DNA of 32,000 bases from Geobacter metallireducens GS-15 (GCF_000012925.1 NC_007517.1:3870001-3902000), one strand, 5' to 3'. Shown: positions 1 through 32,000, counted from the stretch's first letter. The notes: generated from the sequence alone by a model not told the origin. A program made the numbers and translations.

Positions 1-206
1 ATCCCGCCCCCTGGCGGCAGTACCTTTCGGCGGCAGTGGGGGGAATCCTGATGGGGCTCGCCTCGCGCATGGCTCCTGCCTGTAATGTCTGGCATTTTCT
101 GGGGGGGCTGCCCATCCTTGCATTTTCCAGCATTTTTTTCCTGGCAGGAATCCTCCCGGGCGCCTGGCTCGGAGCTTGCATACTAACCAGATGGGTAGTG
201 CGCTGA
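1..206 (+). CDS. YeeE/YedE-family sulfur-compound transporter, C-terminal end (5' part outside window)
   Basis: Frame 3 is open from the window edge to TGA at 204-206. It reads ...GGILMGLASRMAPACNVWHFLGGLPILAFSSIFFLAGILPGAWLGACILTRWVVR, a hydrophobic membrane segment with a Cys loop as in YeeE/YedE. A TusA/YeeD-like gene follows, as in yeeE-yeeD pairs. It is absent from the ORF track because it has no start codon in the window. Confidence 0.55.
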   Translation, partial: PAPWRQYLSAAVGGILMGLASRMAPACNVWHFLGGLPILAFSSIFFLAGILPGAWLGACILTRWVVR

Positions 207-240
207 GCGTGTCGCCCTACATTTTGCCGGAGATACAATC

Positions 241-495
241 ATGACATCCGCTGCTGTCGACACTATCGAATACGACATCCGGGGCCAGATATGCCCGTCC
301 ACGCTGCTCATCGCCCTGCGGGAGATCAACAGCCATGCTGCTGCCTTGCGCAAAGGCGAGGTAGCCCTCCTGTTCCTGACCACCAATCGCGACTCGACCC
401 ACACCATTCCCGAATCGGCGCAGAACATGGGATTTTGTGCTGTGGTGGCCCCCCGGGACGGCTACTATGCCATCAGGGTGTCCGGCAATGAGTGA
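241..495 (+). CDS. TusA/SirA/YeeD-like sulfur-carrier protein (84 aa), variant active-site motif
   Basis: The N-terminal DIRGQICPSTLL matches the TusA-family D-x-R-G-x-x-CPxP signature, except that the second Pro is Thr. Size and position after a YeeE-like gene fit. Confidence 0.65.
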   Translation: MTSAAVDTIEYDIRGQICPSTLLIALREINSHAAALRKGEVALLFLTTNRDSTHTIPESAQNMGFCAVVAPRDGYYAIRVSGNE

Positions 496-1885
496 GCATC
501 AACCGCAAACCAGCGGCACGATAACGGCTCGAGTCCCTGACGGCCCCGCGGCCGAGCTCGCGCAACTCAAGGAGGAAAATGCCCGGCTCCGCGCCCGGCT
601 CGCCAGCAAGTCCGACTACATCCGCCGCAAGGTCGACCAGATGCTCACGGTCATGGGCACCCGGCCGCTCCGCCAGGAAGAACTCGACGACAACACCTTG
701 ATCGACGTGGACCCCTTGGGCATCCTGGTGGATTCCTTCGCCCACATCCTCGACCATCTCCACACGACAAACCGCGAACTCACCGAGAATCGGGAGTTGT
801 TGCAGACCATCTTCTCCTCTCTCGAATCGGGCATCCTCCTGATCCGGGAGGAAGACCATGTGATCACGGACGTGAACGAAACGGCGTGCCGCAGCCTTGG
901 GCTGAAGCGTGAAGACATCCTCGGCCAACTCTGTTTTTCGTTCATCTACCCCGACTGCACCGGTGCCTGCCCCATGAAGGAGCAGAACCTGAAAATCGAC
1001 AATTCCGAACGGATGCTCCGTGCGGCTGACGGTCACATCGTGCCGGTGCTGAAAACCGTCGGGCGGGTCATGGTGCACGGCATTCCGCACTTTCTTGAAA
1101 GCTTCATTGACATCACTGCCCAGAAAGAGGCGGAAGCAGAGATCCTGGCCCTGAATGATGACCTGGAAATGCGGGTGCAGGAACGAACGGCGGAATTGAT
1201 CCAGGCCAACCGCGAGATGGAGTCGTTCAGCTACTCCATCTCCCATGACCTGCGGGCGCCGTTACGGCACATCAACGGCTATATCAACATTCTCCGCGAG
1301 GATTATGGCGGCCATCTGGATATGGCTGGGATCAACTGCCTGCAACGGGTCGATGCCGCCAGCAAACAGATGGGAATGCTGATCGACGACCTCCTTTCCT
1401 TCTCGCGGATCCCGCGAACCCTCAAAAACCCTCAAACGGTCGACCTGAGCCAACTGGCCCGCGACGTAACCGTCATGCTCCGCGAAACGGAGCCCGACCG
1501 GCAGGTGGAGGTGGAAATCCAGGATGGATTGGTTGCCCATGGGGATGTTTCACTGTTGAACATGGTAGTCCAGAACCTGATCGGCAACGCATGGAAATTC
1601 ACGGCAAGGAGCAGCCGGGCGGCCATTTCTTTCGGGAGGAAACGACAGGGGGAGAGGGACGTATTTTTTGTGCTTGACAATGGCGTCGGCTTCGACATGA
1701 CCTATCAGAACAAGCTTTTCAAGGTCTTCGAACGGCTGAACGGCGAAGAATTTGAGGGAACCGGCATCGGCCTGGCAATAGTCAAGCGGATCGTCAACCG
1801 TCACGGCGGAGATATCTGGGCTGAGTCTTCTCCGGGCAACGGGGCAACCTTTTACTTCACGTTGGCCTCCCCGCGGCAACCTTAG
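488..1885 (+). CDS. Cytoplasmic PAS-domain sensor histidine kinase
   Basis: The ATG at 488 (MSEHQPQ...) overlaps the upstream stop as ATGAGTGA, which I prefer over the track start at 437. H-box SYSISHDLRAPLRHINGY; ATP-lid GTGIGLAIVKRIVNRHGGDIWAESSPGNGATFYFTL; coiled coil plus a PAS segment containing C-x7-C-x3-C (about nt 932-970). Confidence 0.9.
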   Translation: MSEHQPQTSGTITARVPDGPAAELAQLKEENARLRARLASKSDYIRRKVDQMLTVMGTRPLRQEELDDNTLIDVDPLGILVDSFAHILDHLHTTNRELTENRELLQTIFSSLESGILLIREEDHVITDVNETACRSLGLKREDILGQLCFSFIYPDCTGACPMKEQNLKIDNSERMLRAADGHIVPVLKTVGRVMVHGIPHFLESFIDITAQKEAEAEILALNDDLEMRVQERTAELIQANREMESFSYSISHDLRAPLRHINGYINILREDYGGHLDMAGINCLQRVDAASKQMGMLIDDLLSFSRIPRTLKNPQTVDLSQLARDVTVMLRETEPDRQVEVEIQDGLVAHGDVSLLNMVVQNLIGNAWKFTARSSRAAISFGRKRQGERDVFFVLDNGVGFDMTYQNKLFKVFERLNGEEFEGTGIGLAIVKRIVNRHGGDIWAESSPGNGATFYFTLASPRQP

Positions 1886-1899
1886 GCCCCCATCCATGA

Positions 1900-2946
1900 T
1901 CAGTGGCTGTGCCTGTGGTGGATATCGGGCCAGTGAACGTGAGAATGGGTGAGCGGCTCATGCAGGTGGGGATGGTCATGGGGCTCCGTCCCCTCACCTT
2001 CAGCGTGCTCATGTTGATGATGCTCATCATGCAGGTGCTTGTGGGAATGAGAAAGCTCCTCGTGGGTATGGGGGTGGCCGTGCATTTCCCGCTGGAGGAG
2101 CGCTATCCCCGCAAGCATGAGTGAAGCGGCAACCCAATAGGTCGCTGGCGGGCGTTCGCCGAGGATGAGAACGGAGAGGAACGTCCCGACGAAAGGGCCA
2201 ATGGCAAAGAGGGTGCTGGTCCTGGCGGAACCGATTCTCCGCAACGCCTCGACGAACAGAACCAGGCTCATGCCGTAGCTCATGGCGCCGATCAGGAGCG
2301 AACCGGCGACCTGAGGGACGGTTGCCGTTCCGGTTGAGAGAGCGAGCGCCAGGAGTGTGTTGAACGCCCCGGCGCCAAACCCTTTGATGCTGGCGAGAAC
2401 CGTTGCCGGCAGCTCCTCGATGTCACGGGTCAGGTTGTTGTCGATCCCCCAGAACGCACAGGCCAGAAGGACGAGCAGTCCGGCAAAGGAAAAGGCAAGA
2501 GAACCGTCGTTCTTAAGAATGACAAATACCGAACCGAGAAGAATGAGCGCCTTGCCCCCCCAAACGCCGAGGCCCACATGCTCCCTGAAGACAAACCACG
2601 CAATGAGTGTGGTTGCCACCGTTTCAATATTCAATAGGAGAGAAACCTCTGAAGCGGTGCCGAATTTAATGCCGTAGGCAAGAAAGAGCGGAGCGACAAC
2701 ACCGCCGGAGAGTATCGAACCAAGCAAAGCAAGCCGCTTCTTCGGGGATAGCCGCTTTACCTCCTCGATTGATTTTTTCCCCTGAAACAACAGCAGGATG
2801 TGCAGTCCGATCCCCGACCCTAAATAGAGAAGGCCTGCCAACAGGGCGGGCGACATTTCACCTATCACCAGCTTGCATAAGACAGGAGAAATGCCGAAGA
2901 GCGCCGCGGATATGACAGCAAGGAATTGTCCGGAATACATAGGCAT
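1900..2946 (-). CDS. EamA/DMT-superfamily transporter with extremely His-rich C-terminal tail
   Basis: About 10 hydrophobic segments with Gly/Ala-rich EamA-like repeats. The last 60 residues (nt 1903-2082) contain 23 His (HGHPHTHEELSHSHKHLHDEHHQHEH...HVHWPDIHHRHSH). The start is uncertain: TTG 2970, ATG 2946 or ATG 2940. The last has an AAGGA 5 nt upstream. Confidence 0.8.
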   Translation of the reverse strand: MPMYSGQFLAVISAALFGISPVLCKLVIGEMSPALLAGLLYLGSGIGLHILLLFQGKKSIEEVKRLSPKKRLALLGSILSGGVVAPLFLAYGIKFGTASEVSLLLNIETVATTLIAWFVFREHVGLGVWGGKALILLGSVFVILKNDGSLAFSFAGLLVLLACAFWGIDNNLTRDIEELPATVLASIKGFGAGAFNTLLALALSTGTATVPQVAGSLLIGAMSYGMSLVLFVEALRRIGSARTSTLFAIGPFVGTFLSVLILGERPPATYWVAASLMLAGIALLQREMHGHPHTHEELSHSHKHLHDEHHQHEHAEGEGTEPHDHPHLHEPLTHSHVHWPDIHHRHSH

Positions 2947-3038
2947 CCTTAAACTAGTGGCTTTGTTCAAGCGCTTCAGGATACCATACGCCCCCCAAAT
3001 TGTCTGAATGAATTACCCGATTGGGGCCGCCAGTGCCA

Positions 3039-3722
3039 TCACCGCGGCTGTGCCTTCAGCAGGTCCGAGATCTCCCCTTGCATGTCGGTCGCATCGATCT
3101 TCGCATTCTGGAGGAGCGCTCCCCAGCTTTTCTTTCCGCTTTTGACCTCGTGGTAGAGTTGTGGGGCCGGTTGTTTCGTCTTCCGGGCAATGACGGAGGC
3201 AATGATCAACTCCTGGTTGGAAGCGCCATCCTTGTGCATTCCCGCCAGTTCCCCATCGTTCAGCAACCGGTACCGAAGGAGCAGCTCGTCGACCACTGCG
3301 CCGGCAAGGCGCGCTGCCGGGGCCTTCGCGGCAAGGGTGCCGGAGAACCGGGGGCCGAGGACGCCGGGGGATATCCCCTGGGATGCCACGACATCCTTCC
3401 ACGATTCCCTGGACTTCTTCGCCTCAAGGAGGGACTCCGGCGACGCCGGGGATTTGGACGCGATCCAGTAGGCTACCCAGAGGTCATCCGCAGAGGTTCC
3501 CCGCTGCTTCTTCATCACGATCGTCTTTTTCTCCACATTGAACGCCGTTGCGAAAAACGAGTTCTGGGTGGTGGCCAGGAAGTACGGATCGGCCACCGTG
3601 GGGCTCGCCGGATCGTAGGAGCGGTCGGTGAAGCAATGGCAGGTGATGGCGGGAATCGCCTGCGCCGGCAGTGGGGCAAGCAACAGTAGAATCAGGATCA
3701 GGTTGTAGATACCGTGACGCAT
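3039..3722 (-). CDS. Secreted hypothetical protein (signal peptide, CHC motif at mature N-terminus)
   Basis: N-terminal [22 protein letters not shown] followed by [16 protein letters not shown]. Composition is normal, unlike the Arg/Gly-rich opposite-strand ORF 3021-3689. No family recognised. Confidence 0.6.
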
Positions 3723-3766
3723 GGGTGTTCCTCTCTTTGCTGACCAATGACAGCGATTGTCGTGAT

Positions 3767-3793
3767 GGGAGGCGGGGCTCTGCCCCGCCTCCC
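3767..3793 (-). terminator. Perfect 12-bp GC-rich stem-loop (GGGAGGCGGGGC-TCT-GCCCCGCCTCCC), possible attenuator or mRNA-stabilising hairpin
   Basis: Read directly from the sequence. It lies 18 nt downstream of the stop at 3811 and upstream of the start at 3722. No U-tract follows on either strand, so it is not a canonical intrinsic terminator. Confidence 0.3.
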
Positions 3794-3810
3794 CTGTTCA
3801 TCCCGATGGA

Positions 3811-4473
3811 TCAGTGCTCCGCCGCGCCGTGCCCGACCGGGGAATGCCCGGCGCCGCCGTGCTGCTCGGCATGGGGGTCTCCGCCGTGCTCGCCGTGGGC
3901 GCCCGCGCCGGTGGCATCCGTATGGAGCCGCTCGACGTAGTGGGTGAACTCCACATACGCCTTCACGAACTCCCGCCCCTGGGCGACACTCTCATCCTTG
4001 TGCCGGTAGGTCTCCGCGGCATGCTCGTAGCGTTTCCTGATCCCCGCCGCAACATCGTCGCTGACCAGTTTCACCAAGGCGTCGGCAGAACCGCCGACCA
4101 GGGCCTTGTCCGCCTCGGCGACGGCGGGCTCCACCGCTCCGGCGGGCTTCAGGCCGGTGAACGGTGCTCCCTCGCCGGCCCGATGGACCTTGACGAGGGT
4201 CGTGAAAAACCGTGTCTCCGCAGCCTCGGCATTCTTCCCCTTGGCGGCCAGCACCGCGTTGAAAGCACTCTTTACCGTATGTTCATCCGTCGGCCGTACC
4301 CATTTCAGGACCGGGGTAATATCCTTGGCTTCGATGGCCTTCCGCGCGTCCTGAACGACCGGCCCGTCGAGGGTATCGCAATGGGCCGAGGCGAATTGGG
4401 GAAGCGCGAGGGAGAGGGCGATGGCTGCCGCGATTCCCGCCGTTTTGATAGAGAGTATATTTTTCGTGTTCAT
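3811..4473 (-). CDS. Periplasmic protein with predicted mature N-terminus HCDTLDGPVV and His-rich C-terminal tail (possibly DUF6448-type; unverified)
   Basis: Signal peptide MNTKNILSIKTAGIAAAIALSLALPQFASA, then HCDTLDGPVVQDARKAIE. There are 8 His in the last 37 residues (HTDATGAGAHGEHGGDPHAEQHGGAGHSPVGHGAAEH). Confidence 0.7.
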   Translation of the reverse strand: MNTKNILSIKTAGIAAAIALSLALPQFASAHCDTLDGPVVQDARKAIEAKDITPVLKWVRPTDEHTVKSAFNAVLAAKGKNAEAAETRFFTTLVKVHRAGEGAPFTGLKPAGAVEPAVAEADKALVGGSADALVKLVSDDVAAGIRKRYEHAAETYRHKDESVAQGREFVKAYVEFTHYVERLHTDATGAGAHGEHGGDPHAEQHGGAGHSPVGHGAAEH

Positions 4474-4547
4474 GGTTATCTGTCTCCTGTTCTTTGATTT
4501 CTGAGTTTGAAGTAATCACGCCCGCATGGTTTTCCGGGCGCCCATGG

Positions 4548-4940
4548 TCAGGCAGCATTCCTCGGGGGGATATACAGGGGCCGGGGATAGCCGAGGAGGA
4601 GTCTGCCGGCATAGGAAGGGGAGAGTTCCACGATGAGCTGCGTTACGGCATGGGATTGACTATGCGTGACGACAAAAGGGGTGTCCGGATGGCAGATGCC
4701 GGAGCTGCCGTGATGGTCCCCCGTGGAGTCATGGCCGGCGTCCTCCGTGGAGTCATGGCCGGCGTCAGCATCGGTGGCAAGGCAGACGATATCCGAGGCG
4801 TGGGGCCCGCCAGGCTCGACGAACGCAAGGCCGTGGGCGTGGACCAGGGGGAAGAGGAACAGGTGAAGCACCACCATCACCATGGCCACGGCCTGTATGG
4901 GTACATGCGAAAATTTCATGGTCGCGTGTTGCCCTTTCAT
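4548..4940 (-). CDS. Small membrane-anchored His/Asp-rich protein with internal DAGHDST tandem repeat
   Basis: N-terminal hydrophobic segment IQAVAMVMVVLHLFLFPLVHAHG, then DADAGHDSTEDAGHDSTGDHHGSSGICHPD. Start is ATG 4940 or ATG 4919. No family recognised. It heads the His-rich cluster. Confidence 0.5.
   Translation of the reverse strand: MKGQHATMKFSHVPIQAVAMVMVVLHLFLFPLVHAHGLAFVEPGGPHASDIVCLATDADAGHDSTEDAGHDSTGDHHGSSGICHPDTPFVVTHSQSHAVTQLIVELSPSYAGRLLLGYPRPLYIPPRNAA
4716..4766. repeat. 24-bp tandem direct repeat, about 2.1 copies with one mismatch
   Basis: GTCCCCCGTGGAGTCATGGCCGGC (4716-4739) and GTCCTCCGTGGAGTCATGGCCGGC (4740-4763), then GTC. On the minus strand, in frame, it encodes DAGHDST(E/G) twice. 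Confidence 0.9.
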
Positions 4941-4994
4941 TAAATTGCCATGTTTTATTCTACACTTATATACCCGGTACCGACTTGTAATTCC

Positions 4995-5008
4995 TTGACC
5001 GAGGTCAA
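4995..5008. promoter_or_regulatory. Inverted repeat TTGACC-GA-GGTCAA in the AT-richer region upstream of the His-rich cluster
   Basis: Read directly. It lies between the ABC permease stop (5057) and the start of the small His-rich gene (4940). A 2-nt spacer is too short for an RNA hairpin, so a protein-binding site is more likely. No convincing -35/-10 pair could be aligned. Confidence 0.3.
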
Positions 5009-5056
5009 AAACCGTCCCCTTTTCCCGTCGCGTTCATCGCCACGGACACCTCCATC

Positions 5057-6178
5057 TCAGCCGAGTCTCTTGCGGAACCGCAGGGCACTCAGGGACATGA
5101 CCGCCACCCCCAGGGCCAGGAGCGCGGCCAATTGGGGCCAGAGGACGCCGATGCCGTTTCCCTTCAGGAAGATCCCCCGGATGATGACCAGGAAGTAGCG
5201 GAGCGGATTGAGGAAGGTGCCGTACTGGATCGCCTCCGGCATGTTCTCGATGGGGAACATGAAGCCGGAGAGGAGCACCGCCGGGATGTAGAAGAGAAAG
5301 GTGGCCATGAGGGCCTGCTGCTGCGTCCGGGAGATGGTGGAGATGAAGAGCCCGATCCCGAGGACCGACAGGAGGTAGATGCCGGTGGCGAGGGTGAGAA
5401 GCGGCAGGGAGCCCTTTATGGGGATGCCGAACCAGAAGACCCCGACCGTGGTCACCAGTGCCATGTCGAAGAAGCTGATGACGGCGAAGGGGATGGTCTT
5501 CCCCAGGATCAGCTCCACCGGTTTCAGGGGGGTTACCATGAGCTGCTCCATGGTCCCGATCTCCCGTTCCCGCACCACCGCCATGGCGGTGAGCAGCAGA
5601 GAGGTGAGCATGATGATGATGGCGATGACCCCCGGGACGTTGTAGTTTCGGCTCCGAAGATCCGGGTTGTACCAGGCACGGGGGCGGAGATCGACTCTCC
5701 CCGTCTTCGCGAGGGGCCGGGTCATCGCCCGGCTCCCCATATCCTTGCCGAACCGGGCAATGACCCGCGTGGCGTAGTCCATGGCGACAGAGGCGGTGTT
5801 CGAGTCGGTGCCGTCCACGATCACCTGCACCTCCGTGGGGATCCCCCGCGCCAGGTCGCGGCCGAACCCGCGGTTCACCTGCACCGCAGCGAGGACCTTC
5901 CCCCGGTCGATGAGTTCCCCCAGCTCCTCCGGCGAAGCAGGGGTGGAGGTGATGGTGAAGTAGCCCGAGGATTCAAGTCTTCGGGCAAGCTCCCTGCTTT
6001 CATATGAGCGGTCCAGGTCGTAAACGGCGGTGGTGATATTCTTGACATCTGTAGTGACCGCGTAGCCGAACATGAGGAGCTGCAGGATGGGGGTGACGAA
6101 GATGATCGCCTTCATCCGCCGGTCCCGGAAGACCTGGCTGAACTCCTTGATTACCATCTCTCTTATCCGTTCGAACAT
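5057..6178 (-). CDS. ABC-2 type transporter permease (YbhR/YhhJ-like)
   Basis: Typical architecture: N-terminal TM helix, a large periplasmic loop, then 5 C-terminal TMs. It is a paralogue of the adjacent permease and is the last gene of the exporter operon. Confidence 0.9.
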   Translation of the reverse strand: MFERIREMVIKEFSQVFRDRRMKAIIFVTPILQLLMFGYAVTTDVKNITTAVYDLDRSYESRELARRLESSGYFTITSTPASPEELGELIDRGKVLAAVQVNRGFGRDLARGIPTEVQVIVDGTDSNTASVAMDYATRVIARFGKDMGSRAMTRPLAKTGRVDLRPRAWYNPDLRSRNYNVPGVIAIIIMLTSLLLTAMAVVREREIGTMEQLMVTPLKPVELILGKTIPFAVISFFDMALVTTVGVFWFGIPIKGSLPLLTLATGIYLLSVLGIGLFISTISRTQQQALMATFLFYIPAVLLSGFMFPIENMPEAIQYGTFLNPLRYFLVIIRGIFLKGNGIGVLWPQLAALLALGVAVMSLSALRFRKRLG

Positions 6179-23261: not shown

Positions 23262-23282
23262 AGTGAGCATGAAGATAACAAT

Positions 23283-23315
23283 AAAAGCCCATGGACACAG
23301 CATCCATGGGCTTTT
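23283..23315. terminator. Bidirectional rho-independent terminator
   Basis: AAAAGCCCATGGA-CACAGCA-TCCATGGGCTTTT: a perfect 13-bp stem with a 7-nt loop and T-runs on both strands. It sits between the convergent + block and - block. Confidence 0.7.
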
Positions 23316-23505
23316 ATGCGTTCAATTACGCTGCAATATGGCGATTGGAGACGGACACTTCAAGCTCAATTACATAATGTTATCGGCCAGTTAACATTTG
23401 CAGTCCAAATTAACAAATCGTTGATGTTGATCGGCTTCAAAGGCAGACCCACCCCGAAATGCCCCGTGACAAACCGTGCAACCGTGCAATGTCTCCACAA
23501 ACCCG

Positions 23506-24069
23506 TCAGGTCTTCTGATACTCTCTGTTGCATCGTTCAATGAAATTGTTGATGTCTTCAACCGAAATCTCCGGCAGAACCAGAGCGCCATCGGCATCTT
23601 TCTCCACGTCGGTGATCCCGGGGTACTTCTGTTCCAGAGCGCTCAGTTCCTGGCTCTGGCGTTTCACCGTTCGCAGGAGACGCCGGTTATCCTCTTCGAG
23701 CACCAACCTGTCAAAAGCTGAGCGTAGCGCAAATCTCAACTCCAGGTCATCCCACGGCTTGGTGAAGAAGCGGTAGATTTCCCCCTGGTTCACCGCCCTC
23801 ATGGTGGCATCGATAGAGGCATGACCCGTGAGCATGATCCTGATCGTCTCGGGGTACCGCTCGCGGACAGCAGCAAGAAATTCGGCTCCCCCCATGCCCG
23901 GCATCTTCTCGTCGGACACCACCACACCGACCCGGTGCTCAGCGAAAAGCGCCAACCCCTCTTGACCGCTTCCGGCAGTCAGTATCTCGTAGGGCTCGTC
24001 CGCGAGGGCCCTCCGGAGCGAATTAATGACAAAGGGCTCGTCATCCACCAGCAGCAGGGTCTTTTTCAT
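23506..24069 (-). CDS. Response regulator: REC domain + coiled coil + small unassigned C-terminal domain
   Basis: The ATG at 24069 (MKKTLLLVDDEP...) has GGAGGAAA upstream and forms an ATGA overlap with the upstream stop. I prefer it over the track start at 24159. REC motifs LVDDE, VVVSDEKMPGMGG and FTKPWDDLEL. C-terminus: SALEQKYPGITDVEKDADGALVLPEISVEDINNFIERCNREYQKT. Confidence 0.9.
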   Translation of the reverse strand: MKKTLLLVDDEPFVINSLRRALADEPYEILTAGSGQEGLALFAEHRVGVVVSDEKMPGMGGAEFLAAVRERYPETIRIMLTGHASIDATMRAVNQGEIYRFFTKPWDDLELRFALRSAFDRLVLEEDNRRLLRTVKRQSQELSALEQKYPGITDVEKDADGALVLPEISVEDINNFIERCNREYQKT

Positions 24070-26537
24070 ATTTCCTCCATCAAAGTCAGGCTGTCCGTCC
24101 CCTTCTCCACCCCGCAGAAGGGGCAAACGGACCACTCCTCCTCCAGGGGCATCTTGCATCCCTTACAGCAGTTGCTCTTGAAAGTCCCGCAGAAGGGGCA
24201 GAAGAGGAACTTGGCGTCCACCATCTTCCCGCAGTGGGGGCAGGCCCGCTCGTAGACCATCTGGGGGCCAATCACCCGCAGGAGCTCCTCCAGGGTCGTG
24301 AGCCCCAGCCTTACCTTCTCAATCCCGTCCTCGATGAGCGTCTTCATGCCGTTGGCCCGCGCCATCTCGAAGAGCTCTGACTCCCGGTAGTGACTGCTGA
24401 TGAAGTGGCGGAAGTCATCGTTCATAACGAAGAGTTCGAACACCCCGATCCGCCCCCGGTAGCCGGTCTTGTTGCACTTGTCGCACCCCTTCCCCTGGTA
24501 GACGGTTCCATTCAGGTAGTCGGCGGGAACCCGCAGAAGCTCCAGGAGGTCCCGGTCGGGGGGGACGGCGGTCTTGCACGCCTCGCAGACCCGCCGCACG
24601 AGCCGCTGGGCCATGATCCCCTCCAGGGCCGAGGCGATGATGTACGGCTTGATCCCCATATCCATGAGGCGGGTGATGGAGGCGACGGCGCTGTTGGTGT
24701 GGAGGGTGGAGAGGACCATGTGGCCCGTGAGCGATGCTTTGAACGCCACGTCGGCGGTCTCCTGGTCGCGGATCTCCCCCACCATGATCACGTCCGGATC
24801 CTGGCGCAGCGTCGAGCGGAGCACTTGGGCAAAGGAGAGGCCGATCTTCTCCCGGACCGCCACCTGGTTCGCCTCCTCCAGGAAGTACTCCACCGGCTCC
24901 TCGATGGTCTCGAAGTTCTTGTGGCTGTCCATCATGGCAGACAGCAGCGAGTAGAGCATGGTGGTTTTGCCGCTCCCGGTGGGGCCTGTGGAGATGATGA
25001 CCCCCTGGGGCTTTTTGCTGAGAACGGTCAGCTTCCTCATGTCATCGGGAAGTACCCCCAGTTCGTCCAACCCCTTGATGGAAGCGCTCTTGTCGAGGAT
25101 CCGCATCACCACTTTCTCGCCGTTCATGGTGGGGAGGGTCGAGACCCGCATGTCTACGATCCTGGTTCCGGCCTTGACCGTGATCCGGCCGTCCTGGGGT
25201 TTACGCCGCTCGGAAATGTCCATCTTGGCGAGAATCTTCACCCGCGAAACCACCGCCGCGTGGATGTCGGAGGGGATCCTGATTTTACCGTGGAGAAGCC
25301 CGTCGATCCGGTAGCGGATCACGGTGCACTTGGTCTTGGGCTCGATGTGGATGTCGCTGGCCCGGTAGCGGACCGCCTCGGAGATGACAGCGTTGACGAC
25401 CCTGATGATGGGAGGGACTTTGGAGGAGCCGATCAACTCGTCGACGCTCACGTCGGCCTCTTCGTCCTCAATGACGATGTCAATCTCGTCCAGGGGCTCC
25501 AGTTCGCCGAATTCGTCGAGCTCCTCTCCGCCACCGGAAACGATGGCGGCGGCCCCCTCGCCGTAGATCCGAGCGAGCTGGGCCTGGATCTCGGAACTGG
25601 TGGAGAGGAGGGGCATCACCTTGAGGCCCAGGACCCGGGAGATATTGTCGATCTTGAAGATGTCGGAGGGGTCGGCCATGGCAATGGTGAGCCGGTTACC
25701 GTCGAGCCGCACCGGGATGAGGCGGTGCCTGTCGCACATGTCGCGGGGGAGACACCGCACCACCCCGGGGGTGATGTTCGCCTCCCGCAGGTCGATGAAC
25801 TCGACGCCCAGGTGGTTCTGGAGGGTCTTGAGAATCTTCGCCTCGGTGGAGACGCTGGTCCTCACCAGGGCGTCCACCAGGAGCTCTCCTGGTTTCTTCC
25901 CCTGGAGCACCGCGGCGAAGTCATCCTTGCGGATCACCCCCGCCTCGGTCAGGATGCTCCCGAGCATCGACTTGTCCTCATCGAAGAGCCCGGCGAAGTT
26001 CCTGATCTTCGTCTGCTGGGCCTTGGCGATCTCCTTGAGCTTCTTGTTCTCCTGGATGAGAGCATACTGTTGGAGCGCGAGACTCACTGTGAGGCGCAGG
26101 TCCTCGTCGTTCCACGGCTTGGTGATGAACTTGAAGACCGCCCCCTCCCTCACCGCCCCCATGATCGACTGGACGTCGGCGTAGCCGGTCAGCATGATCC
26201 GGATGGTATCGGGCCACTTCTGTTTGATCTCCTTGAGGAGCTGAGCGCCGGTCATCCCCGGCATCCGGTGGTCGGAGACGACCAAGTGCACCGAATGTTT
26301 TCCAAGGATCTCCAAAGCCTTTTCGGCCGATTCGGCGGTGAGGATCTCGTAGTTCTCGTCGATAAAAATACGCCGCAACGCCCTTAGGACCCCCTCCTCG
26401 TCGTCGACGAAGAGGAGGGTGAACCTGCTCTCGGTCTCGCTGTACTCCACCAGCGAGGCGTCGTCATCGGGCAAAAGGGGCGGCGGGGGCTCCTTGCCGG
26501 CAGCAACGGTTTTGAAGAGTTCCGAAAACTTTGCCAT
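24066..26537 (-). CDS. REC-domain-fused GspE/PilB-type secretion ATPase with C-terminal double zinc ribbon
   Basis: REC: LLFVDDEEGVLRAL...VVSDHRMPGMTG...FITKPWNDEDL. T2SSE_N-like: LGVEFIDLREANITPGVVRCLPRDMCDRHRLIPVRLDGNRLTIAMADPSD. ATPase: Walker A GPTGSGKTT, Walker B DPDVIMVGEIRD, His box LTGHMVLSTLHTN, tetra-Cys CEACK...CDKCNKTGYRGRIGVFE. Extra tail: CPHCGKMVDAKFLFCPFCG...CKGCKMPLEEEWSVCPFCG. Confidence 0.9.
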   Translation of the reverse strand: MAKFSELFKTVAAGKEPPPPLLPDDDASLVEYSETESRFTLLFVDDEEGVLRALRRIFIDENYEILTAESAEKALEILGKHSVHLVVSDHRMPGMTGAQLLKEIKQKWPDTIRIMLTGYADVQSIMGAVREGAVFKFITKPWNDEDLRLTVSLALQQYALIQENKKLKEIAKAQQTKIRNFAGLFDEDKSMLGSILTEAGVIRKDDFAAVLQGKKPGELLVDALVRTSVSTEAKILKTLQNHLGVEFIDLREANITPGVVRCLPRDMCDRHRLIPVRLDGNRLTIAMADPSDIFKIDNISRVLGLKVMPLLSTSSEIQAQLARIYGEGAAAIVSGGGEELDEFGELEPLDEIDIVIEDEEADVSVDELIGSSKVPPIIRVVNAVISEAVRYRASDIHIEPKTKCTVIRYRIDGLLHGKIRIPSDIHAAVVSRVKILAKMDISERRKPQDGRITVKAGTRIVDMRVSTLPTMNGEKVVMRILDKSASIKGLDELGVLPDDMRKLTVLSKKPQGVIISTGPTGSGKTTMLYSLLSAMMDSHKNFETIEEPVEYFLEEANQVAVREKIGLSFAQVLRSTLRQDPDVIMVGEIRDQETADVAFKASLTGHMVLSTLHTNSAVASITRLMDMGIKPYIIASALEGIMAQRLVRRVCEACKTAVPPDRDLLELLRVPADYLNGTVYQGKGCDKCNKTGYRGRIGVFELFVMNDDFRHFISSHYRESELFEMARANGMKTLIEDGIEKVRLGLTTLEELLRVIGPQMVYERACPHCGKMVDAKFLFCPFCGTFKSNCCKGCKMPLEEEWSVCPFCGVEKGTDSLTLMEEI

Positions 26538-26538
26538 G

Positions 26539-27858
26539 CTATCCCCCTGTCACCGGCAGTCTCACCACGAAAGAGGCACCTCCTTCGGGCGTGCTTCCAG
26601 CCTCCACCGTGCCGCCGTGGGCGGTTACTACCTCGTGGGCCACCGCAAGCCCCATCCCCATCCCCTGGCCCACCGGCTTGGTGGTGAAGAAGGGTTCGAA
26701 GACGCGGTCCAGGAGCTCCGGCAGGATGCCGGGGCCGTTGTCGGTGATGGTTATGGCGATGGCATCCCCCTCCAGGGCGGTGCGGATGGTGAGCCTGAGC
26801 CCCTCGCTCCGGGCCTGACAGGCGTTCATGATGATGTTGAGGAACACCTGGCAGAGTTCCCCCGCCCGGCAGCTGAGTCCCGGAATGGAGCCGTACTCCC
26901 TGGCGATCTCGGTCCCCGCCGGGATCTCGTGGACCAGCACGGCGAGGGTTCGGTCGATCTCGGCGTTCAGGTCCGCCACCGTTTCCCCTAGGTCGTCGAT
27001 GTGCGAGAACCCCTTCAGGTCGGCCACAATCTTTTTCACCCGCTCCGCCCCGCCGAGACTCTGGGATACAAGTTCGTCCACATCGGCAAGTACCATGTCG
27101 AGCTTCAACTGGCGCCACTTCTCGGCAAAGCGCTCCCCGCCCGCTCCTCCCCCCGCCACGGGGAAGAGATCCCGGGCGAACTGAAGCATCTCCACGAAGC
27201 GCCCTGCATACTTCTGCATCGTCCGGATGTTGCTCGTGACGAACCCCATGGGATTGTTGATCTCGTGGGCGATGCCAGCCGCCAGCTGCCCCACCGAGGC
27301 GAGCTTCTCCTGTTGCAGGAGTCGGGCCAGGGCCTTTTTCAGCTCCGCGGTCCGCTCCTCCACCTTGATCTCCAGGCTCTCCGCCAGCTCCCGATAGCGG
27401 GCCTCGGAGGCAGTAAGCTTCCGGTTAGTTTCCAGAAGCTCCTCGTAGGACTGGTTCACCACCGTCGTGTGGATCTCGGTGGTGAGCATCCTCTTCAGGT
27501 TCGAGCCCACCAGGAGGTTCACCGCAGCCGTGAGCATGACGGCAATCCCCTTCAGGAACTCCTCCCTTCCCCTCTCTCCCTTCACCAGAATCGACCCCAC
27601 CGGCTCCCCCTCCAGGAGGATGGCGGGCCCTCGGAGCCCCAGGGAGGCAGCTTCCCCTCCGTCGGTCGGCGCGGCATGGGACCAGAGAGTGGTTCCCTCG
27701 GCATCGGCGAGGGCCGCGGCACGGGCGCCGGCACGTACGGCACCCCTGAGGAGCGGGATCACCTCTGTCTCGGTGATGACGTCCCTGAGGAGCCGCTCTT
27801 CGCCGACCACGTAGTTGAGGCGCTTGGCCGATACGTTTGATGTATGTTGGTTTTTCAT
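26539..27858 (-). CDS. Soluble sensor histidine kinase with unassigned N-terminal domain of about 130 aa
   Basis: H-box EKLASVGQLAAGIAHEINNPMGF and HATPase motifs NIIMNACQA, DNGPGI, GQGMGMGLAVAHEVVTAHGG. No TM segment. ATG 27858 (AAGAGA upstream) is preferred; GTG 27888 is possible. Confidence 0.85.
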   Translation of the reverse strand: MKNQHTSNVSAKRLNYVVGEERLLRDVITETEVIPLLRGAVRAGARAAALADAEGTTLWSHAAPTDGGEAASLGLRGPAILLEGEPVGSILVKGERGREEFLKGIAVMLTAAVNLLVGSNLKRMLTTEIHTTVVNQSYEELLETNRKLTASEARYRELAESLEIKVEERTAELKKALARLLQQEKLASVGQLAAGIAHEINNPMGFVTSNIRTMQKYAGRFVEMLQFARDLFPVAGGGAGGERFAEKWRQLKLDMVLADVDELVSQSLGGAERVKKIVADLKGFSHIDDLGETVADLNAEIDRTLAVLVHEIPAGTEIAREYGSIPGLSCRAGELCQVFLNIIMNACQARSEGLRLTIRTALEGDAIAITITDNGPGILPELLDRVFEPFFTTKPVGQGMGMGLAVAHEVVTAHGGTVEAGSTPEGGASFVVRLPVTGG

Positions 27859-27936
27859 GATAGGTCTCTTTGAACATCCACTGGGCACACTCTATAGCGC
27901 CTCGCATCGCATGAGCAGAGCGCCATGAAGGCGCCC

Positions 27937-28614
27937 CTACACGAATCCAGCTATGCCCTGCGTCGCTTCAACCGATGTCATCTTTCGCACGAAGCTCTCG
28001 CTGCCGAGTCCGTGCTCATCCAGGAGCCGGTACTTCCGGTCGATGGCAGCATAGGTAAGCTCCAGAAGCCTAGTGAAGGTCTCCACCACACCCCACCCCT
28101 CCAGGGCCGATGCGCCCGTCACCTGGATCCCCGTGGGTTCCCAGACCCGGGCGATCTCTTCCTCGCTCACGATGTTTGTCAGGTCCCTCTTGTTGAACTG
28201 GATCACGAGGGGAACCTTTTCGATATCGATTCCCACGAAGGCAAGGTTTTTCTCCAGGTTGTCGAAACTCTCGAAATTGTTGGCCGCCTCGGAGAGTTGG
28301 GAATCAGCCACGAAGACCACTCCGTCTGCCCGTTGAAGAACCGCCTTGCGGGTTGCATCGTGGCGCACCTGCCCCGGCACTGTGTAGACCTTCACCTTGA
28401 TCTTCAAGCCGCTTGGCGCCACGAGGAAAAAGGGGAGGAGATCGAAGAATATGGTCCGGTCGTCAGTCGTGTCGAGGACCATCAGCTCTCCACGCCCCTC
28501 CTGGGTGATCAGGTCGTGGAGTTTCAGTAGATTTGTAGTCTTTCCCGACATGGCTGGTCCGTAGTAGACCAGCTTCAAGACCATCTTTTTTTGTGCTTCG
28601 TCGTATTCAATCAT
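27937..28614 (-). CDS. MglA-family Ras-like small GTPase with C-terminal extension
   Basis: It aligns along its length with M. xanthus MglA as I recall it: KLVYYGPAMSGKTTNL (P-loop), DRTIFFDLLP (switch I), VYTVPGQV (the MglA-specific TxxGQ in place of DxxGQ), GVVFVADSQ, IQFNKRDL (NKxD). 225 aa versus about 195 for MglA. Confidence 0.85.
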   Translation of the reverse strand: MIEYDEAQKKMVLKLVYYGPAMSGKTTNLLKLHDLITQEGRGELMVLDTTDDRTIFFDLLPFFLVAPSGLKIKVKVYTVPGQVRHDATRKAVLQRADGVVFVADSQLSEAANNFESFDNLEKNLAFVGIDIEKVPLVIQFNKRDLTNIVSEEEIARVWEPTGIQVTGASALEGWGVVETFTRLLELTYAAIDRKYRLLDEHGLGSESFVRKMTSVEATQGIAGFV

Positions 28615-28623
28615 TACCCACGC

Positions 28624-29934
28624 TCATACTTCCACGAAGACGCCGTGAGGGGGAGGGTCGAGGCGGTAGTAGCGGCGGATCGCCTCGATCTTGACCACAT
28701 CGAGGCGTACCCCCCGGTTGAGGAGAAGGAGGCCGGTGCCACTGTATATGTCGCGGGAGAGCACTTGGCCGACAAAAAGCTCGGCGATTCCCACCTCGAC
28801 CTCGCCGAGTTTCCTGGTATCCGTTTCCTTCACATAGTAGACGTGCTTGGCGAACTTGCGCAGGGACTCATAGAGGGACGGATCGAGCTTCTTCCCCAAC
28901 TCGGCGGCGACGCTCCGCAGGCCGTAGTCGATGGCAGTGTAACCGTGCAGCTTCTGTATGGCCCTATCGAGAAAATCGGCTATGGCGATGATGCGGGAGC
29001 CGAGGGGAATAGCCTCTCCCCGCAGGCCGTCGGGGTAACCGCTGCCGTCGTAATGCTCGTGGTGATGGCGGATGAGGACCCCGGCAGGGGTGAGCTCCTC
29101 AATGGCGTCAATGGCCGTCTGCCCCCTCACGGCATGGAGCATGTACTCTCTCAGCTCTCCCGGAGTCATCTCTGACAGGTCCTTCTTCAGGATCGCATCA
29201 GCTATCCCCAACTCCCCGATGTCGTGGAGCAGGGCCGCGTTGTGCACCGTCTCCACCTCCCCGGCGGAAACCCCCATTGCCTGGGCAATGTTCATGGCGA
29301 GGGTCGCCACGGTTTCGGCGTGACGCTTTTTCCCCCCCAGTTCTATAAGCCGGGAAAACGCCGTGACGGTGTCCTTGAAATTGCTCCGGAGCCGTTCGTT
29401 GAGCTCTTTCAGGTTTTCGTGTTTCTTCCGGATCTCGGTAGTCTGCTCGAGGACCCGCACCTTCAGGTTCTCATTCCACTCCTTGAGCTCCTCGTTCTGC
29501 TTGTTGACGATCTCCGTGAGGCGCCGGTTCTCCTGAACGAGCCGGTACTGGTTGACCGCGTCGCGGATGATCTGGACCAGTTCCTCGTCGTTCCACGGCT
29601 TGGTGATGTACCGATAGGCGCCGCCGCGATTGATGGCATCCACAGTTGCCGAAATGTCTGCGTATCCGGTCAGCATGATCCGGAGTGTCTCGGGGAACAT
29701 CTCCCGGACCTGGGCCAGAAACTGGACCCCGGTGATCTCGGGCATCCGCTGATCGGACACGATAACCCCCACGTCCTCCGTCTCCATGAGAATCCGCAGT
29801 CCTTCCCTGGCCGACGGAGCGGTGATGACCTCGAACTCCTCATCCATGAAAACCCTGCTCAGGGACTTGAGCATGTTTTCCTCGTCATCGACGAAAAGCA
29901 CCCGTACCGGTGCAGTTTCCGGCAGTTCATACAT
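28624..29934 (-). CDS. RpfG-type response regulator: REC + HD-GYP c-di-GMP phosphodiesterase + C-terminal extension
   Basis: ATG 29934 (MYELPE...) has GAGGGAG upstream, and I prefer it over the track start at 30063. REC: VLFVDDEENMLKSL...VIVSDQRMPEITG...YITKPWNDEEL. HD-GYP: LLHDIGE and HHHEHYDGSGYPDGLRGEAIPLGSRIIAIAD. Confidence 0.9.
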   Translation of the reverse strand: MYELPETAPVRVLFVDDEENMLKSLSRVFMDEEFEVITAPSAREGLRILMETEDVGVIVSDQRMPEITGVQFLAQVREMFPETLRIMLTGYADISATVDAINRGGAYRYITKPWNDEELVQIIRDAVNQYRLVQENRRLTEIVNKQNEELKEWNENLKVRVLEQTTEIRKKHENLKELNERLRSNFKDTVTAFSRLIELGGKKRHAETVATLAMNIAQAMGVSAGEVETVHNAALLHDIGELGIADAILKKDLSEMTPGELREYMLHAVRGQTAIDAIEELTPAGVLIRHHHEHYDGSGYPDGLRGEAIPLGSRIIAIADFLDRAIQKLHGYTAIDYGLRSVAAELGKKLDPSLYESLRKFAKHVYYVKETDTRKLGEVEVGIAELFVGQVLSRDIYSGTGLLLLNRGVRLDVVKIEAIRRYYRLDPPPHGVFVEV

Positions 29935-30067
29935 GAACGTGTACTCCCTCTTTACTATCGTTCGGCAATAATTCCCTTTTCTTGAATGCGGAAATATCCG
30001 CGGAGAGCCGCTCCAAGGAGTTGAGAATATGCTCTTCATCATCCACGAACAGAATTTTGGCACTCAT
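29927..30067 (-). pseudogene. Stub of a receiver-domain gene (46-codon ORF, only the first 21 codons or so are REC-like)
   Basis: The ATG at 30067 forms an ATGA overlap with the hybrid-kinase stop. The ORF reads MSAKILFVDDEEHILNSLERL, then unrelated SADISAFKKRELLPNDSKEGVHVHV*. The REC-like part parallels VRVLFVDDEENMLKSLSRVF of the next gene. The DNA after the stub is visibly AT-richer. Confidence 0.45.
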
Positions 30068-32000
30068 AGGGGTTCCTCCCCATTGAAGACAAGAACGATT
30101 CCCTCCTGCTCCCCCTCCTTGAGATACACCCCCAGACTCCGGACTCCGGCGACACCGGCCAATAGCCGGCACATGGAGGTCTTTTCCCGGGCGAGCTCGT
30201 CAATGAACGCACAGATCTCCGGCGACAGGGCTTCGGCTGCGCCTCTACCGACGACTGCGTATTCATCGAGCCCCAGAAGCCGCGCCGCACTCCGGTTGCA
30301 TTGGACCACCGTCCCCTCCGTGTCCATCCCCAGGACCCCCACCGGCAAAGCGTCGAGGATGTTCTGGGCGGCACTGAGGGCCCGGTTGCGGAACAGGACT
30401 TCCTCGGTCCGTTCGGCAACGATCGCCTCCAGGTTCTCGTTCATAAGGACGAGCTCCTCGTTGGACCGGCTCAACTCATCAAGGAGCTTGGCGTTATGCT
30501 TTTGGAGCTGGTACTTCTCCAGGGCGTTTATCACTGTAACCCTGAGTTCGTCGTCGGTCCACGGCTTGGGGACGAACTTGTAGATCTGCCCCTCGTTGAT
30601 GGCGGCGACAATGGCGGCCGTGTCGGCATACCCCGACAGGACGATGCGGACCGTGTCGGGCCACTGGGTACAGACCTTACGGAGAAAATCGACCCCGTTC
30701 ATGACCGGCATCCGGTAGTCAGAGATAACGATCTGCACCGGGGACTCCCGCTCGAGGATTTCCAGCCCCTCGGCCGCCGACGAAGCGGTAAGGATGTCGT
30801 AGTTGTCGTCGAGGAACATCCGTCCCAGCGACCGGAGCACGTTCATCTCATCATCCACACAGAGAATGCGTACCTGTTCGTCCATATCAGTTCCTCTCCC
30901 GGACAGGGACCGCACGGTGAAGGTGGTCCCCCGGCCTTGCTCGCTCTCCACGGTAATCTCGCCGCCGTGCTTCTTCACGATGTCGTAGCTGATGGAAAGC
31001 CCGAGCCCCGTCCCCTTTCCCACCTCCTTGGTGGTGAAGAAGGGCTCGAAGATCCGGGCTCTGATCTCCTCGGGAATCCCGCAGCCAGTGTCGGAAATGG
31101 CAATGAAGGCGTCCTCCCCCTCACGCCAGGTCCGGACGGTAATCTCTCCCTGGCTCTCGATGGCATGGCCGGCATTCACGAGGAGATTCATGAATACCTG
31201 GTTGAGCTGCTGGGGGTTGCACCGCAGGGGAGGGACGTCGCCGTACTCCTTCTTGAGAGTCGCTTTGTACTTCAACTCGTTCCAGACGATGTTGATGGTG
31301 CTGTCGAGGCACTCGCGCAGATCCACCACCTTCACCTCTGCCTCATCCACCCGGGAGAATCCCTTGAGATCCTGCACGATCTTCTTCACCCGCTCCGCCC
31401 CGTCGAGGGATTCGGTGATGAGGCCGTCGATGTCTCCCATGATGTACTCTATCTTCAGCGTCTTTTTTGCTTGGGCGAGGCGCTGCGACACCGCTTCCCC
31501 TTCCAGTTCGGCGATGGTCTCATCCTGGGCGGCGATGAATTCCCGAATCCGTCCCAGATACTTACCGAGGGTTCCGAGGTTGCTCATGATGAAACCGATG
31601 GGATTGTTGATCTCATGGGCCACGCCGGCGGCCAGCTGCCCGATGGAGGCCATTTTTTCCCGCTGGAGCATCTGTCCCTGGGCCTCCTTCAACTCGCCGT
31701 AGGCCTTCTCCAGGGCTTCGCCGACCTTTTTCAGCTCCGTGGTATCGTGAAGTGTGACGACGCTCCCACTCATCCCGCTTTCATTTTTTTGTCTGAAGGG
31801 GTAGATGGCGCAGAAGAACCAGCGTTCCGTCAACCTGTGGAAGAGCTCTCCTCCCTCTTGGGTGAACCGGATCCTCTCCATCTCGGGCGAGAGAACGATC
31901 GAACGCCACTCTCTCCCAAGGACATCCTGGTAGGGAAGACCGGCAAGCTCGACGACGGCCCGGTTGCAGCGCCGGATGTGTCCTTCGTTGTCCGTCAGGA
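30064..32000 (-). CDS. Hybrid sensor kinase PAS-HisKA-HATPase-REC-PAS (5' end outside window)
   Basis: The frame stays open upstream of the track start to the window edge (..LTDNEGHIRRCNRAVVELAGLPYQDVLGREWRSIVLSPEMERIRF.., PAS-like). H-box EKMASIGQLAAGVAHEINNPIGF; HATPase DTGCGI and GKGTGLGLSISYDIVKKHGG. REC: ILCVDDEMNVLRSL...VISDYRMPVMNG...FVPKPWTDDEL. A PAS-like segment of about 100 aa ends the protein. Confidence 0.9.
   Translation of the reverse strand, partial: LTDNEGHIRRCNRAVVELAGLPYQDVLGREWRSIVLSPEMERIRFTQEGGELFHRLTERWFFCAIYPFRQKNESGMSGSVVTLHDTTELKKVGEALEKAYGELKEAQGQMLQREKMASIGQLAAGVAHEINNPIGFIMSNLGTLGKYLGRIREFIAAQDETIAELEGEAVSQRLAQAKKTLKIEYIMGDIDGLITESLDGAERVKKIVQDLKGFSRVDEAEVKVVDLRECLDSTINIVWNELKYKATLKKEYGDVPPLRCNPQQLNQVFMNLLVNAGHAIESQGEITVRTWREGEDAFIAISDTGCGIPEEIRARIFEPFFTTKEVGKGTGLGLSISYDIVKKHGGEITVESEQGRGTTFTVRSLSGRGTDMDEQVRILCVDDEMNVLRSLGRMFLDDNYDILTASSAAEGLEILERESPVQIVISDYRMPVMNGVDFLRKVCTQWPDTVRIVLSGYADTAAIVAAINEGQIYKFVPKPWTDDELRVTVINALEKYQLQKHNAKLLDELSRSNEELVLMNENLEAIVAERTEEVLFRNRALSAAQNILDALPVGVLGMDTEGTVVQCNRSAARLLGLDEYAVVGRGAAEALSPEICAFIDELAREKTSMCRLLAGVAGVRSLGVYLKEGEQEGIVLVFNGEEPL

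Follow-up and report, generated by a model that had tools for sequence, protein, structure and literature searches.

An orphan MglA-family GTPase of Geobacter metallireducens GS-15 and its conserved association with a histidine kinase gene

We analyzed a 32,000-nucleotide (nt) stretch of the Geobacter metallireducens GS-15 genome (GCF_000012925.1, NC_007517.1:3870001-3902000), here called the window, and in particular the gene Gmet_3475 (Table 1), which a preliminary description of this DNA had read as an MglA-family GTPase embedded in a two-component operon with no gene for MglB. An open reading frame (ORF) was confirmed at the coordinates of that gene, and its strand, not given earlier, is the minus strand. 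The product, of 225 amino acids (aa), matches ABB33683.1, WP_004513925.1, and UniProt Q39PZ1 exactly, the last annotated as "MglA-related GTPase" of G. metallireducens GS-15; Gmet_3475 is a real, intact gene and not a chance ORF. The order of the surrounding genes was read on the minus strand, with domains taken from Pfam and NCBIfam, and the tags Gmet_3474 and Gmet_3476 were deduced from sequential locus numbering. As described previously, the GTPase gene is wedged between an HD-GYP regulator, whose stop codon lies 9 nt before the GTPase ATG, and a histidine kinase on the other side, and both neighbors were borne out by ORF, Pfam, and NCBIfam analyses. The gene was catalogued before: Table S2 of Wuichet & Sogaard-Andersen 2014 lists Gmet_3475 ("<MglA", 225 aa) among the Group-1 MglA proteins that lack a coupled MglB. 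The same study found 59 orphan MglA homologs, which it left unanalyzed, and remarked that Group-1 neighborhoods "vary widely" (Wuichet & Sogaard-Andersen 2014). Our literature searches found no paper on Gmet_3472-3477 except for a survey of HD-GYP domains and no published description of the gene context of this clade. Gmet_3475 is catalogued but functionally unstudied, and what is new is the conserved module in which it resides, together with evidence from gene pairs and gene fusions that associates the GTPase with a histidine kinase.

The MglA hallmarks earlier attributed to the protein, GPAMSGKTT, TVPGQ, and NKRD, are all present in the translation. Group-1 MglA proteins are defined by an intrinsic arginine finger next to the G2 threonine, with TVPGQ as the G3 motif (PMC4316618). 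Gmet_3475 possesses the P-loop GxxxxGK[ST], the arginine finger, TVPGQ, and a G4 motif of the form [NT]KxD, its DDR53-T54 aligning with the DRT of Myxococcus xanthus MglA, and it stands with the Group-1 proteins in the authors' own listing. A phmmer search across the Protein Data Bank (PDB) retrieved M. xanthus MglA (6h17, 6hjh, and 5ymx; E=1e-44) and T. thermophilus MglA (3t12; E=1.7e-42), with the alignment spanning residues 8 to 188 of Gmet_3475 and the next matches, Sar1 and Rab35, falling near E=1e-3; Pfam reported only weak Arf and Ras matches. The AlphaFold2 (AF2) model of the protein had a predicted local distance difference test score (pLDDT) of 83.2 and a predicted template modeling score (pTM) of 0.85. 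Because all G motifs, R53/T54, and Q82 are invariant over an alignment of 68 clade members, Gmet_3475 is predicted to be catalytically competent and should bind and hydrolyze GTP by the Group-1 mechanism.

Homology searches revealed that Gmet_3475 belongs to a compact group of proteins. Searches with the GTPase and with the full-length kinase yielded more than 8000 and more than 4000 clusters, respectively. The best 120 GTPase clusters at 90% identity were all at least 71% identical to Gmet_3475 and about 218 aa long, and the best 80 species-level loci, from a genome scan that did not return G. metallireducens itself, were 68 to 91% identical to it, 91% being the top identity; the corresponding 80 genomes span Geobacterales, Desulfuromonadales, Nitrospirota/Thermodesulfovibrionia, Desulfobulbia, Desulfomonilia, Bacteriovoracaceae, and others. 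In a 50%-identity library, the clade reduces essentially to a single cluster (P0246, 310 bits), after which scores drop to about 200 bits. Phylogenetic placement, one of the checks proposed in the preliminary description, put the window protein outside canonical MglA: in a neighbor-joining (NJ) tree of the G domain, it formed a tight group with ten orphan loci and P0246, apart from canonical MglA. Orthology with housekeeping MglA is likewise not borne out by identity, which is about 47% between Gmet_3475 and M. xanthus MglA, with a median of 44% for the related loci. The clade has 110 positions with at least 90% conservation; at 36 of them, its residue is not the one common to both canonical MglAs, and many of these differences lie in residues 51 to 76 and 85 to 96, which we interpret as the switch I/beta2-3 and switch II/alpha2 regions. 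Judged by these sequence comparisons, the Gmet_3475 clade is a distinct, deeply conserved paralog clade and not housekeeping MglA.

The absence of a recognizable mglB from the operon, claimed earlier, was borne out and extends to the entire window, as Pfam Robl_LC7 matched none of the six operon proteins and none of 105 ORFs of 70 to 260 aa across the 32 kb (E<=0.01). Hence no mglB was recognized within four genes of Gmet_3475, the spacing by which an MglA/MglB system is counted as coupled. When M. xanthus MglB, whose sequence was verified against PDB entry 6h5b, was used as a tblastn query, a match was obtained in only 1 of 81 related loci, the Nitrospiraceae contig L048, at 5.9 kb upstream; this MglB homolog adjoins the canonical mglA of that contig and not the orphan. 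The canonical MglA of L048 is 79% identical to M. xanthus MglA, compared to 47% for the orphan on the same contig. Genome-wide, an mglB does exist in G. metallireducens, beside the housekeeping MglA Gmet_3417 ("<MglA<MglB", 195 aa), and the genome encodes a further orphan, Gmet_1982 (289 aa) (Wuichet & Sogaard-Andersen 2014, Table S2). The preliminary description had held that its reading would be undermined if the protein grouped with housekeeping MglA and a canonical mglB sat elsewhere; the canonical pair is indeed present elsewhere, but by identity and in the NJ tree, the protein does not group with housekeeping MglA.

Gene order in 81 loci was compared by tblastn searches, for which domain-specific queries were taken from the window proteins; the denominators below are the loci with enough flanking sequence. 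The N-terminal domain of the kinase directly follows the GTPase in 75 of 77 loci, and the catalytic part of the kinase was detected in 74 of 75. Retention is similarly high for the ATPase core and MshEN domain (69/71) and for the ATPase zinc ribbon (68/70), while an HD-GYP protein lies just upstream of the GTPase in 69 of 80 loci, a homologous kinase occurs within 5 kb upstream in 60 of 67, and the tail of the small REC protein was found in 42 of 66. The same order was seen in Pfam-annotated contigs of G. sulfurreducens, one Nitrospirota metagenome-assembled genome (MAG), and two others, and none of these four neighborhoods contained a gene for a Robl_LC7, platform (T2SSF), or pilin protein. 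The clade is a constant part of a signaling operon that comprises a PAS kinase or REC-PAS protein, a REC-HD-GYP protein, the GTPase, a soluble kinase, a REC-MshEN-ATPase, and a single REC protein. In locus L083 of a Nitrospirota MAG (positions 1 to 5245), the module adjoins genes for flagellin, FlaG, FliD, and FliS as well as another REC-HD-GYP/REC pair; this arrangement may be coincidental.

A histidine kinase also accompanies related GTPases outside this clade. In sister clusters with a similar C-terminal motif (P0252, P0253, P0254, P0258, and P0391), a histidine kinase gene lies immediately downstream of the GTPase gene in five of five informative contexts, overlapping it by 4 nt in three, and four of the five kinases have the layout PocR-HisKA-HATPase_c; no REC-ATPase was found near the sister GTPases in these five contexts. 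The source names, Kofleriaceae for P0254 and Myxococcales for the related cluster P0256, place these two clusters in Myxococcota. Among 150 representatives of MglA-like proteins, five (P0260, P0262, P0268, P0323, and P0370) are fusions of an N-terminal MglA-like GTPase to HisKA/HATPase_c, with a PocR-like domain in P0260 and GAF in P0262. Since P0262 (745 aa) recurs at identical length in four assemblies and P0323 (690 aa, Acidobacteriota) in five, these two are not gene-calling accidents. We found no description of MglA-like GTPase-kinase fusions in the literature searched. The kinases themselves appear related: when the signaling helix of the window kinase was compared by hhalign to that of the sister PocR kinases, the match had a probability of 93.7% and E=1.9e-7, the distinctive helix reading (N)LKRMLTTEIHTTVVNQSYEELLETN in the window kinase and RSLITSQLHIESVTESYREVNEKN in the PocR kinases. 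Because adjacency, fusion, and a common kinase subfamily all point the same way, a functional GTPase-kinase unit is the best-supported interpretation of these comparative data. The preliminary description had proposed that a neighboring signaling protein controls the GTPase or that the GTPase serves as an adaptor for the ATPase. The former has gained strong comparative support from adjacency, sister pairs, and fusions, for the downstream kinase alone, with binding and regulation to be read as probable rather than observed; the latter is less favored, since in sister clades the kinase is retained and the ATPase is not.

Several observations on the wider family were made alongside. The sister GTPases measure 226 to 252 aa in L086, L087, L088, L090, L091, and a JGI 3300047160 contig, and genes for HrcA, Peptidase_M50, DEAD-helicase, or Lon often occur close by. 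A 507-aa GTPase that seemed to be present in L022 was rejected as a fusion; its ORF had been read across a stop codon. Of the 150 best MglA-like representatives, 88 are at least 400 aa long with long C-terminal tails, and in the five non-kinase members scanned (P0259, P0303, P0307, P0337, and P0357), the tail had no Pfam match; the long-tailed representatives are a large set of uncharacterized multidomain or tailed proteins.

The C-terminal extension of Gmet_3475, earlier put at about 30 residues, is 32 residues long, and the protein terminates in IDRKYRLLDEHGLGSESFVRKMTSVEATQGIAGFV, as quoted previously. That some 32 residues lie past the 195-aa MglA follows from the PDB MglA alignment, which covers residues 8 to 188. 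The motif Y188..D192.(R/K)(Y/F).L..HGL....F208 is kept in the clade, and the last ~12 residues are variable. A similar motif was found in the kinase-paired sister clades and in fusion P0260, and it is common to Myxococcales orphan MglA-like clusters. In the AF2 model, helices at residues 197 to 201 and 205 to 213 have a pLDDT of approximately 94, which suggests that the two short helices pack on the G domain; residues 217 to 225 score below 50 and are disordered.

The ORF of the downstream kinase is 100% identical to a 439-aa G. metallireducens protein and is laid out as an N-terminal alpha/beta domain, a signaling helix, HisKA, and HATPase_c. The N-terminal domain was modeled by AF2 from a 120-sequence alignment (pLDDT 80.8) as a helix, two strands, a variable loop, two strands, and the long signaling helix. 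Foldseek comparison of this model to the PDB gave a mixture of PAS (DosP), GAF (Nlh1 and DosS/DosT), and Roadblock matches, all with E>=0.014 and TM scores of about 0.4 to 0.48. The Roadblock matches were weak and included MglB (3t12_B; rank 5, E=0.046, TM 0.45/0.47), MglC, and a Rag-like protein from Lokiarchaeota. Robl_LC7 had no match in 60 homologs of the domain at E<=1, and a PDB profile search returned nothing significant, the PhoR PAS domain alone appearing at E=0.038. A homolog search with the N-terminal fragment alone retrieved just five short fragments. When aligned by eye with the sister kinases, the domain suggests a PocR/PAS-like core minus the Cys-rich insert. Altogether, the model and these comparisons point weakly to a small sensor-type domain of PAS/GAF/Roadblock-like fold.

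Upstream of the GTPase, Gmet_3476 contains REC and HD_5/HD domains (Pfam) and scores 477.5 bits with the NCBIfam REC-HD-GYP "NosR family" model, for which the cut-off is 400. It is cited in the HD-GYP domain survey as an RxxQ/RxxN variant shifted towards cyclic GMP-AMP (cGAMP), and a G. metallireducens HD-GYP candidate was selective for cGAMP in an in vivo biosensor screen (Wright et al.). In keeping with the cited assignment, Gmet_3476 reads ...ADFLDRAIQ... after the GYP motif, an RxxQ-type variant (DRAIQ). Across the related loci, the upstream HD-GYP protein occurs in two forms, one a REC-HD-GYP protein of ~440 aa with a noncanonical RxxK region and the other a shorter protein of ~320 to 360 aa with the canonical DRPYxK; the shorter form is present in about a third of loci, and elsewhere the residues at the RxxQ position vary. 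Because of these two forms, cGAMP specificity is no general property of the module, and "cGAMP operon" was rejected as a general description, the RxxQ signature not being kept across the operon family. A Dechloromonas aromatica candidate was also assayed in the biosensor screen (Wright et al.), and Daro_0968 is an orphan MglA of 214 aa.

The remaining operon genes encode further two-component proteins and a motor-like ATPase. The ATPase has Pfam matches to T2SSE (2.6e-131), MshEN, REC, and DZR, and it falls below the NCBIfam cut-offs for PilB and GspE. Its zinc ribbon (DZR/DUF7575-like; 24066-24300, minus strand) comes after the usual tetracysteine region. At residues ~185 to 240 (25850-26000, minus strand), N-terminal to the Pfam MshEN match, the expected cyclic di-GMP-binding motifs (RLGxxLLxxGLL...Q) are only loosely recognizable and poorly conserved. 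The hybrid kinase ORF begins at 31881 with an apparent tail of a PAS domain, and REC and PAS follow the kinase core. The corresponding kinase and REC-PAS protein have individual genes in both G. sulfurreducens and Nitrospirota; the G. metallireducens arrangement reflects either a fusion of these genes or a true start that is located outside the window. The REC domains of the hybrid kinase, the ATPase, and the single REC protein reach 190 to 213 bits with the REC portion of the NosR-family model; the fourth operon REC, that of the REC-HD-GYP protein, passes this model in full. These scores suggest that the four belong to one paralogous REC subfamily (KPW-type), fed by two paralogous kinases. 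A terminator-like hairpin downstream of the single REC gene likely marks the end of the operon, and a scan of the window with Rfam gave no match. The genes at positions 1 to 22800 of the window look ordinary and unrelated: a PAS kinase, an EamA transporter, an ABC-2/HlyD/OEP efflux system accompanied by a TetR regulator, three alpha-amylase-family genes (among them a long trehalose-synthase-like ORF), a ClC-like channel ORF, and small ORFs of the DUF6448, TusA, and Pirin-like types.

Table 1. Features of the Gmet_3475 operon, in positions counted from the first nucleotide of the window
Feature	Position	Strand	Remarks
Hybrid kinase ORF, HisKA-HATPase_c-REC-PAS	30064..31881	minus	605 aa; N-terminus at window edge
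REC-HD-GYP response regulator (Gmet_3476), ORF	28624..30063	minus	Probable start M44 at 29934, giving 436 aa
GTPase gene (Gmet_3475 / Q39PZ1)	27937..28614	minus	ATG start, 225 aa; MglA-family (Group 1) small GTPase
G1 / P-loop GPAMSGKTT, residues 19-27	28534..28560	minus	From translation; invariant in 68 clade members
Intrinsic arginine finger R53 beside G2 threonine T54 (DDRT)	28453..28458	minus	Both invariant in clade
G3 TVPGQ, residues 78-82	28369..28383	minus	Thr replacing Asp, plus catalytic Gln; invariant in clade
G4 NKRD, residues 141-144	28183..28194	minus	Guanine specificity; invariant in clade
C-terminal extension, residues 194-225	27940..28035	minus	Beyond canonical MglA; alignments and AF2 model
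Soluble histidine kinase (Gmet_3474), ORF	26539..27888	minus	449 aa; database start M11 (27858), giving 439 aa
Kinase N-terminal domain, ORF residues ~22-135	27484..27825	minus	No Pfam family
Signaling helix NLKRMLTTEIHTTVVNQSYEELLETN	27409..27528	minus	Joins kinase N-terminal domain to HisKA; near-invariant in alignments
REC-MshEN-T2SSE (PilB/GspE-type) ATPase with C-terminal double zinc ribbon	24066..26537	minus	823 aa; Pfam
Single-domain response regulator with C-terminal tail	23506..24159	minus	Probable start M31 at 24069, overlapping ATPase stop
Terminator-like hairpin	23281..23317	minus	17-bp stem and T-rich tail

Taken as a whole, the comparative evidence leads us to consider that Gmet_3475 is most likely the G-protein subunit of the kinase encoded next to it, a view that we hold with somewhat better than even confidence. 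In this view, the GTPase would dock on the kinase, probably using its C-terminal helical extension, its switch regions, or both, and the contact points on the kinase may be the N-terminal alpha/beta domain and the signaling helix. Kinase output to the four closely related receiver domains would then be gated by whether the GTPase carries GTP or GDP, and these domains in turn would control the motor-like ATPase and the phosphodiesterase. The motifs, the clade, the synteny, the sister pairing, the fusions, and the absence of mglB from the operon were directly observed, whereas the physical binding, the direction of regulation, and the source of any GTPase-activating protein (GAP) or guanine nucleotide exchange factor (GEF) activity are inferred. 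Tentatively, and with appreciably less confidence, the pattern may be extended to propose that GTPases with a helical extension and an adjoining or fused kinase constitute widespread, undescribed "G-protein-coupled histidine kinases" of Desulfobacterota, Nitrospirota, Myxococcota, and Acidobacteriota. In these systems, a PocR/PAS-like N-terminal domain and the signaling helix would replace MglB as GAP, GEF, or effector, and in Geobacter and Nitrospirota, the switch would couple cyclic-dinucleotide turnover by the HD-GYP protein, cGAMP-selective in G. metallireducens, to the PilB-like ATPase.

A number of points weigh against the GTPase being a subunit of the kinase. Adjacency and fusion indicate a functional link and specify neither its mechanism nor its direction, and the fusions and sister pairs lie outside the Geobacter/Nitrospirota clade itself. 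The N-terminal domain of the kinase has no significant Roadblock/MglB sequence match, and its fold matches are weak and mixed. The tree that separates the clade from canonical MglA is a simple NJ tree with no bootstrap support. In addition, the canonical MglB of the same genome could act in trans, and a direct link to the ATPase is plausible given that MglA and SofG act on the localization of PilB and PilT.

The last of these points underlies an alternative that we regard as unlikely, in which Gmet_3475 is a polarity or localization factor whose GTP-bound form recruits or activates the REC-MshEN-PilB-like ATPase, with the kinases acting via the ATPase receiver alone. The near-universal presence of the ATPase in the clade loci is consistent with such a role, as are the control of PilB and PilT localization by MglA and SofG in M. 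xanthus and the C-terminal motif common to Myxococcales orphan MglA-like proteins. It is, however, the kinase gene that the GTPase gene always abuts and not that of the ATPase; sister clades and fusions retain the kinase with no such ATPase nearby, and no type IV pilus or type II secretion machine genes were present in the neighborhoods examined. Lower still is the probability we assign to Gmet_3475 being a standard MglA paralog on which the canonical MglB encoded next to Gmet_3417 acts in trans, its operon position reflecting only co-regulation. This would fit with the canonical mglA-mglB pair in the same genome, and in L048 on the same contig as the orphan, and with the intact state in Gmet_3475 of the arginine finger and glutamine that MglB repositions in MglA. 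The identity to canonical MglA of just 44 to 47%, the concentration of the 36 clade-specific substitutions in what we take to be the switch regions, and the conservation of kinase synteny across phyla all argue otherwise; MglB, moreover, is not known to act as a GAP for the orphan SofG. Marginally less probable again is an arrangement in which the GTPase binds one of the four operon REC domains and reads or sets its phosphorylation, adjacency to the kinase being incidental. MglA is known to interact with REC-domain proteins such as RomR, FrzS, and AglZ, and the operon holds four closely related REC domains; in the sister-clade pairs and the fusions, however, no REC domain lies next to the GTPase.

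Comparison with known systems places Gmet_3475 nearest to MglA/MglB of M. xanthus and T. thermophilus in family and catalytic design, as indicated by the ~47% identity over residues 8 to 188. It differs from that system in having no adjacent mglB, in its separate clade, in its conserved 32-residue extension and clade-specific switch-region residues, and in its location within an operon for two-component, cyclic-dinucleotide, and ATPase proteins; canonical MglA, unlike Gmet_3475, retains 79% identity across phyla. SofG of M. xanthus and MglA of Bdellovibrio are, like Gmet_3475, Group-1 GTPases without a coupled MglB. SofG, which bears terminal extensions, acts on PilB and PilT, and proteins of the SofG type carry an N-terminal extension of ~60 residues as well as a C-terminal one. 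Set against this description of SofG, Gmet_3475 has the C-terminal extension but no N-terminal one, its G domain starting at residue ~10, and the ~289-aa orphan Gmet_1982 is more likely to be the SofG counterpart in Geobacter.

An MglA-family GTPase likewise adjoins and works with a histidine kinase in the actinobacterial conservon, which comprises the kinase CvnA, the Roadblock protein CvnB, CvnC, and the GTPase CvnD, and in which the GTPase is regarded as belonging to the signaling output of the kinase. Conservon GTPases belong to Group 2 (GTPGQ, no arginine finger, and a deviant G4) and are accompanied by the Roadblock protein and CvnC, whereas Gmet_3475 is a Group-1 protein with no Roadblock partner, a soluble kinase, and plentiful receiver domains. 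CvnC/DUF742 was not reported by the Pfam scans, which included no search aimed at it. By its GTPase group and its lack of a Roadblock protein, the Gmet_3475 locus is not a conservon; by analogy, the conservon is the nearest precedent for a two-component kinase that carries a nucleotide switch. The operon neighbors belong to the REC-HD-GYP phosphodiesterases and the MshEN-type PilB/GspE/MshE ATPases, respectively, the ATPase differing from PilB/GspE in its subthreshold NCBIfam scores and its extra zinc-ribbon tail, and in the literature searched, we found no published link of either family to a small GTPase.

Nearly all that is understood of bacterial Ras-like GTPases comes from the MglA/MglB polarity switch. 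Gmet_3475 represents an orphan clade locked to a specific histidine kinase, with adjacency in at least 75 species-level genomes and with pairs and fusions in related clades, and this pairing gives an MglB-less MglA a concrete, testable partner. It suggests a second route, besides the conservon, by which G-protein and two-component signaling are joined in bacteria. Because the Geobacter module also includes a PilB-like ATPase and a phosphodiesterase reported to be cGAMP-selective, the module may bear on how cyclic-dinucleotide signaling reaches pilus- or secretion-type motors in electroactive bacteria.

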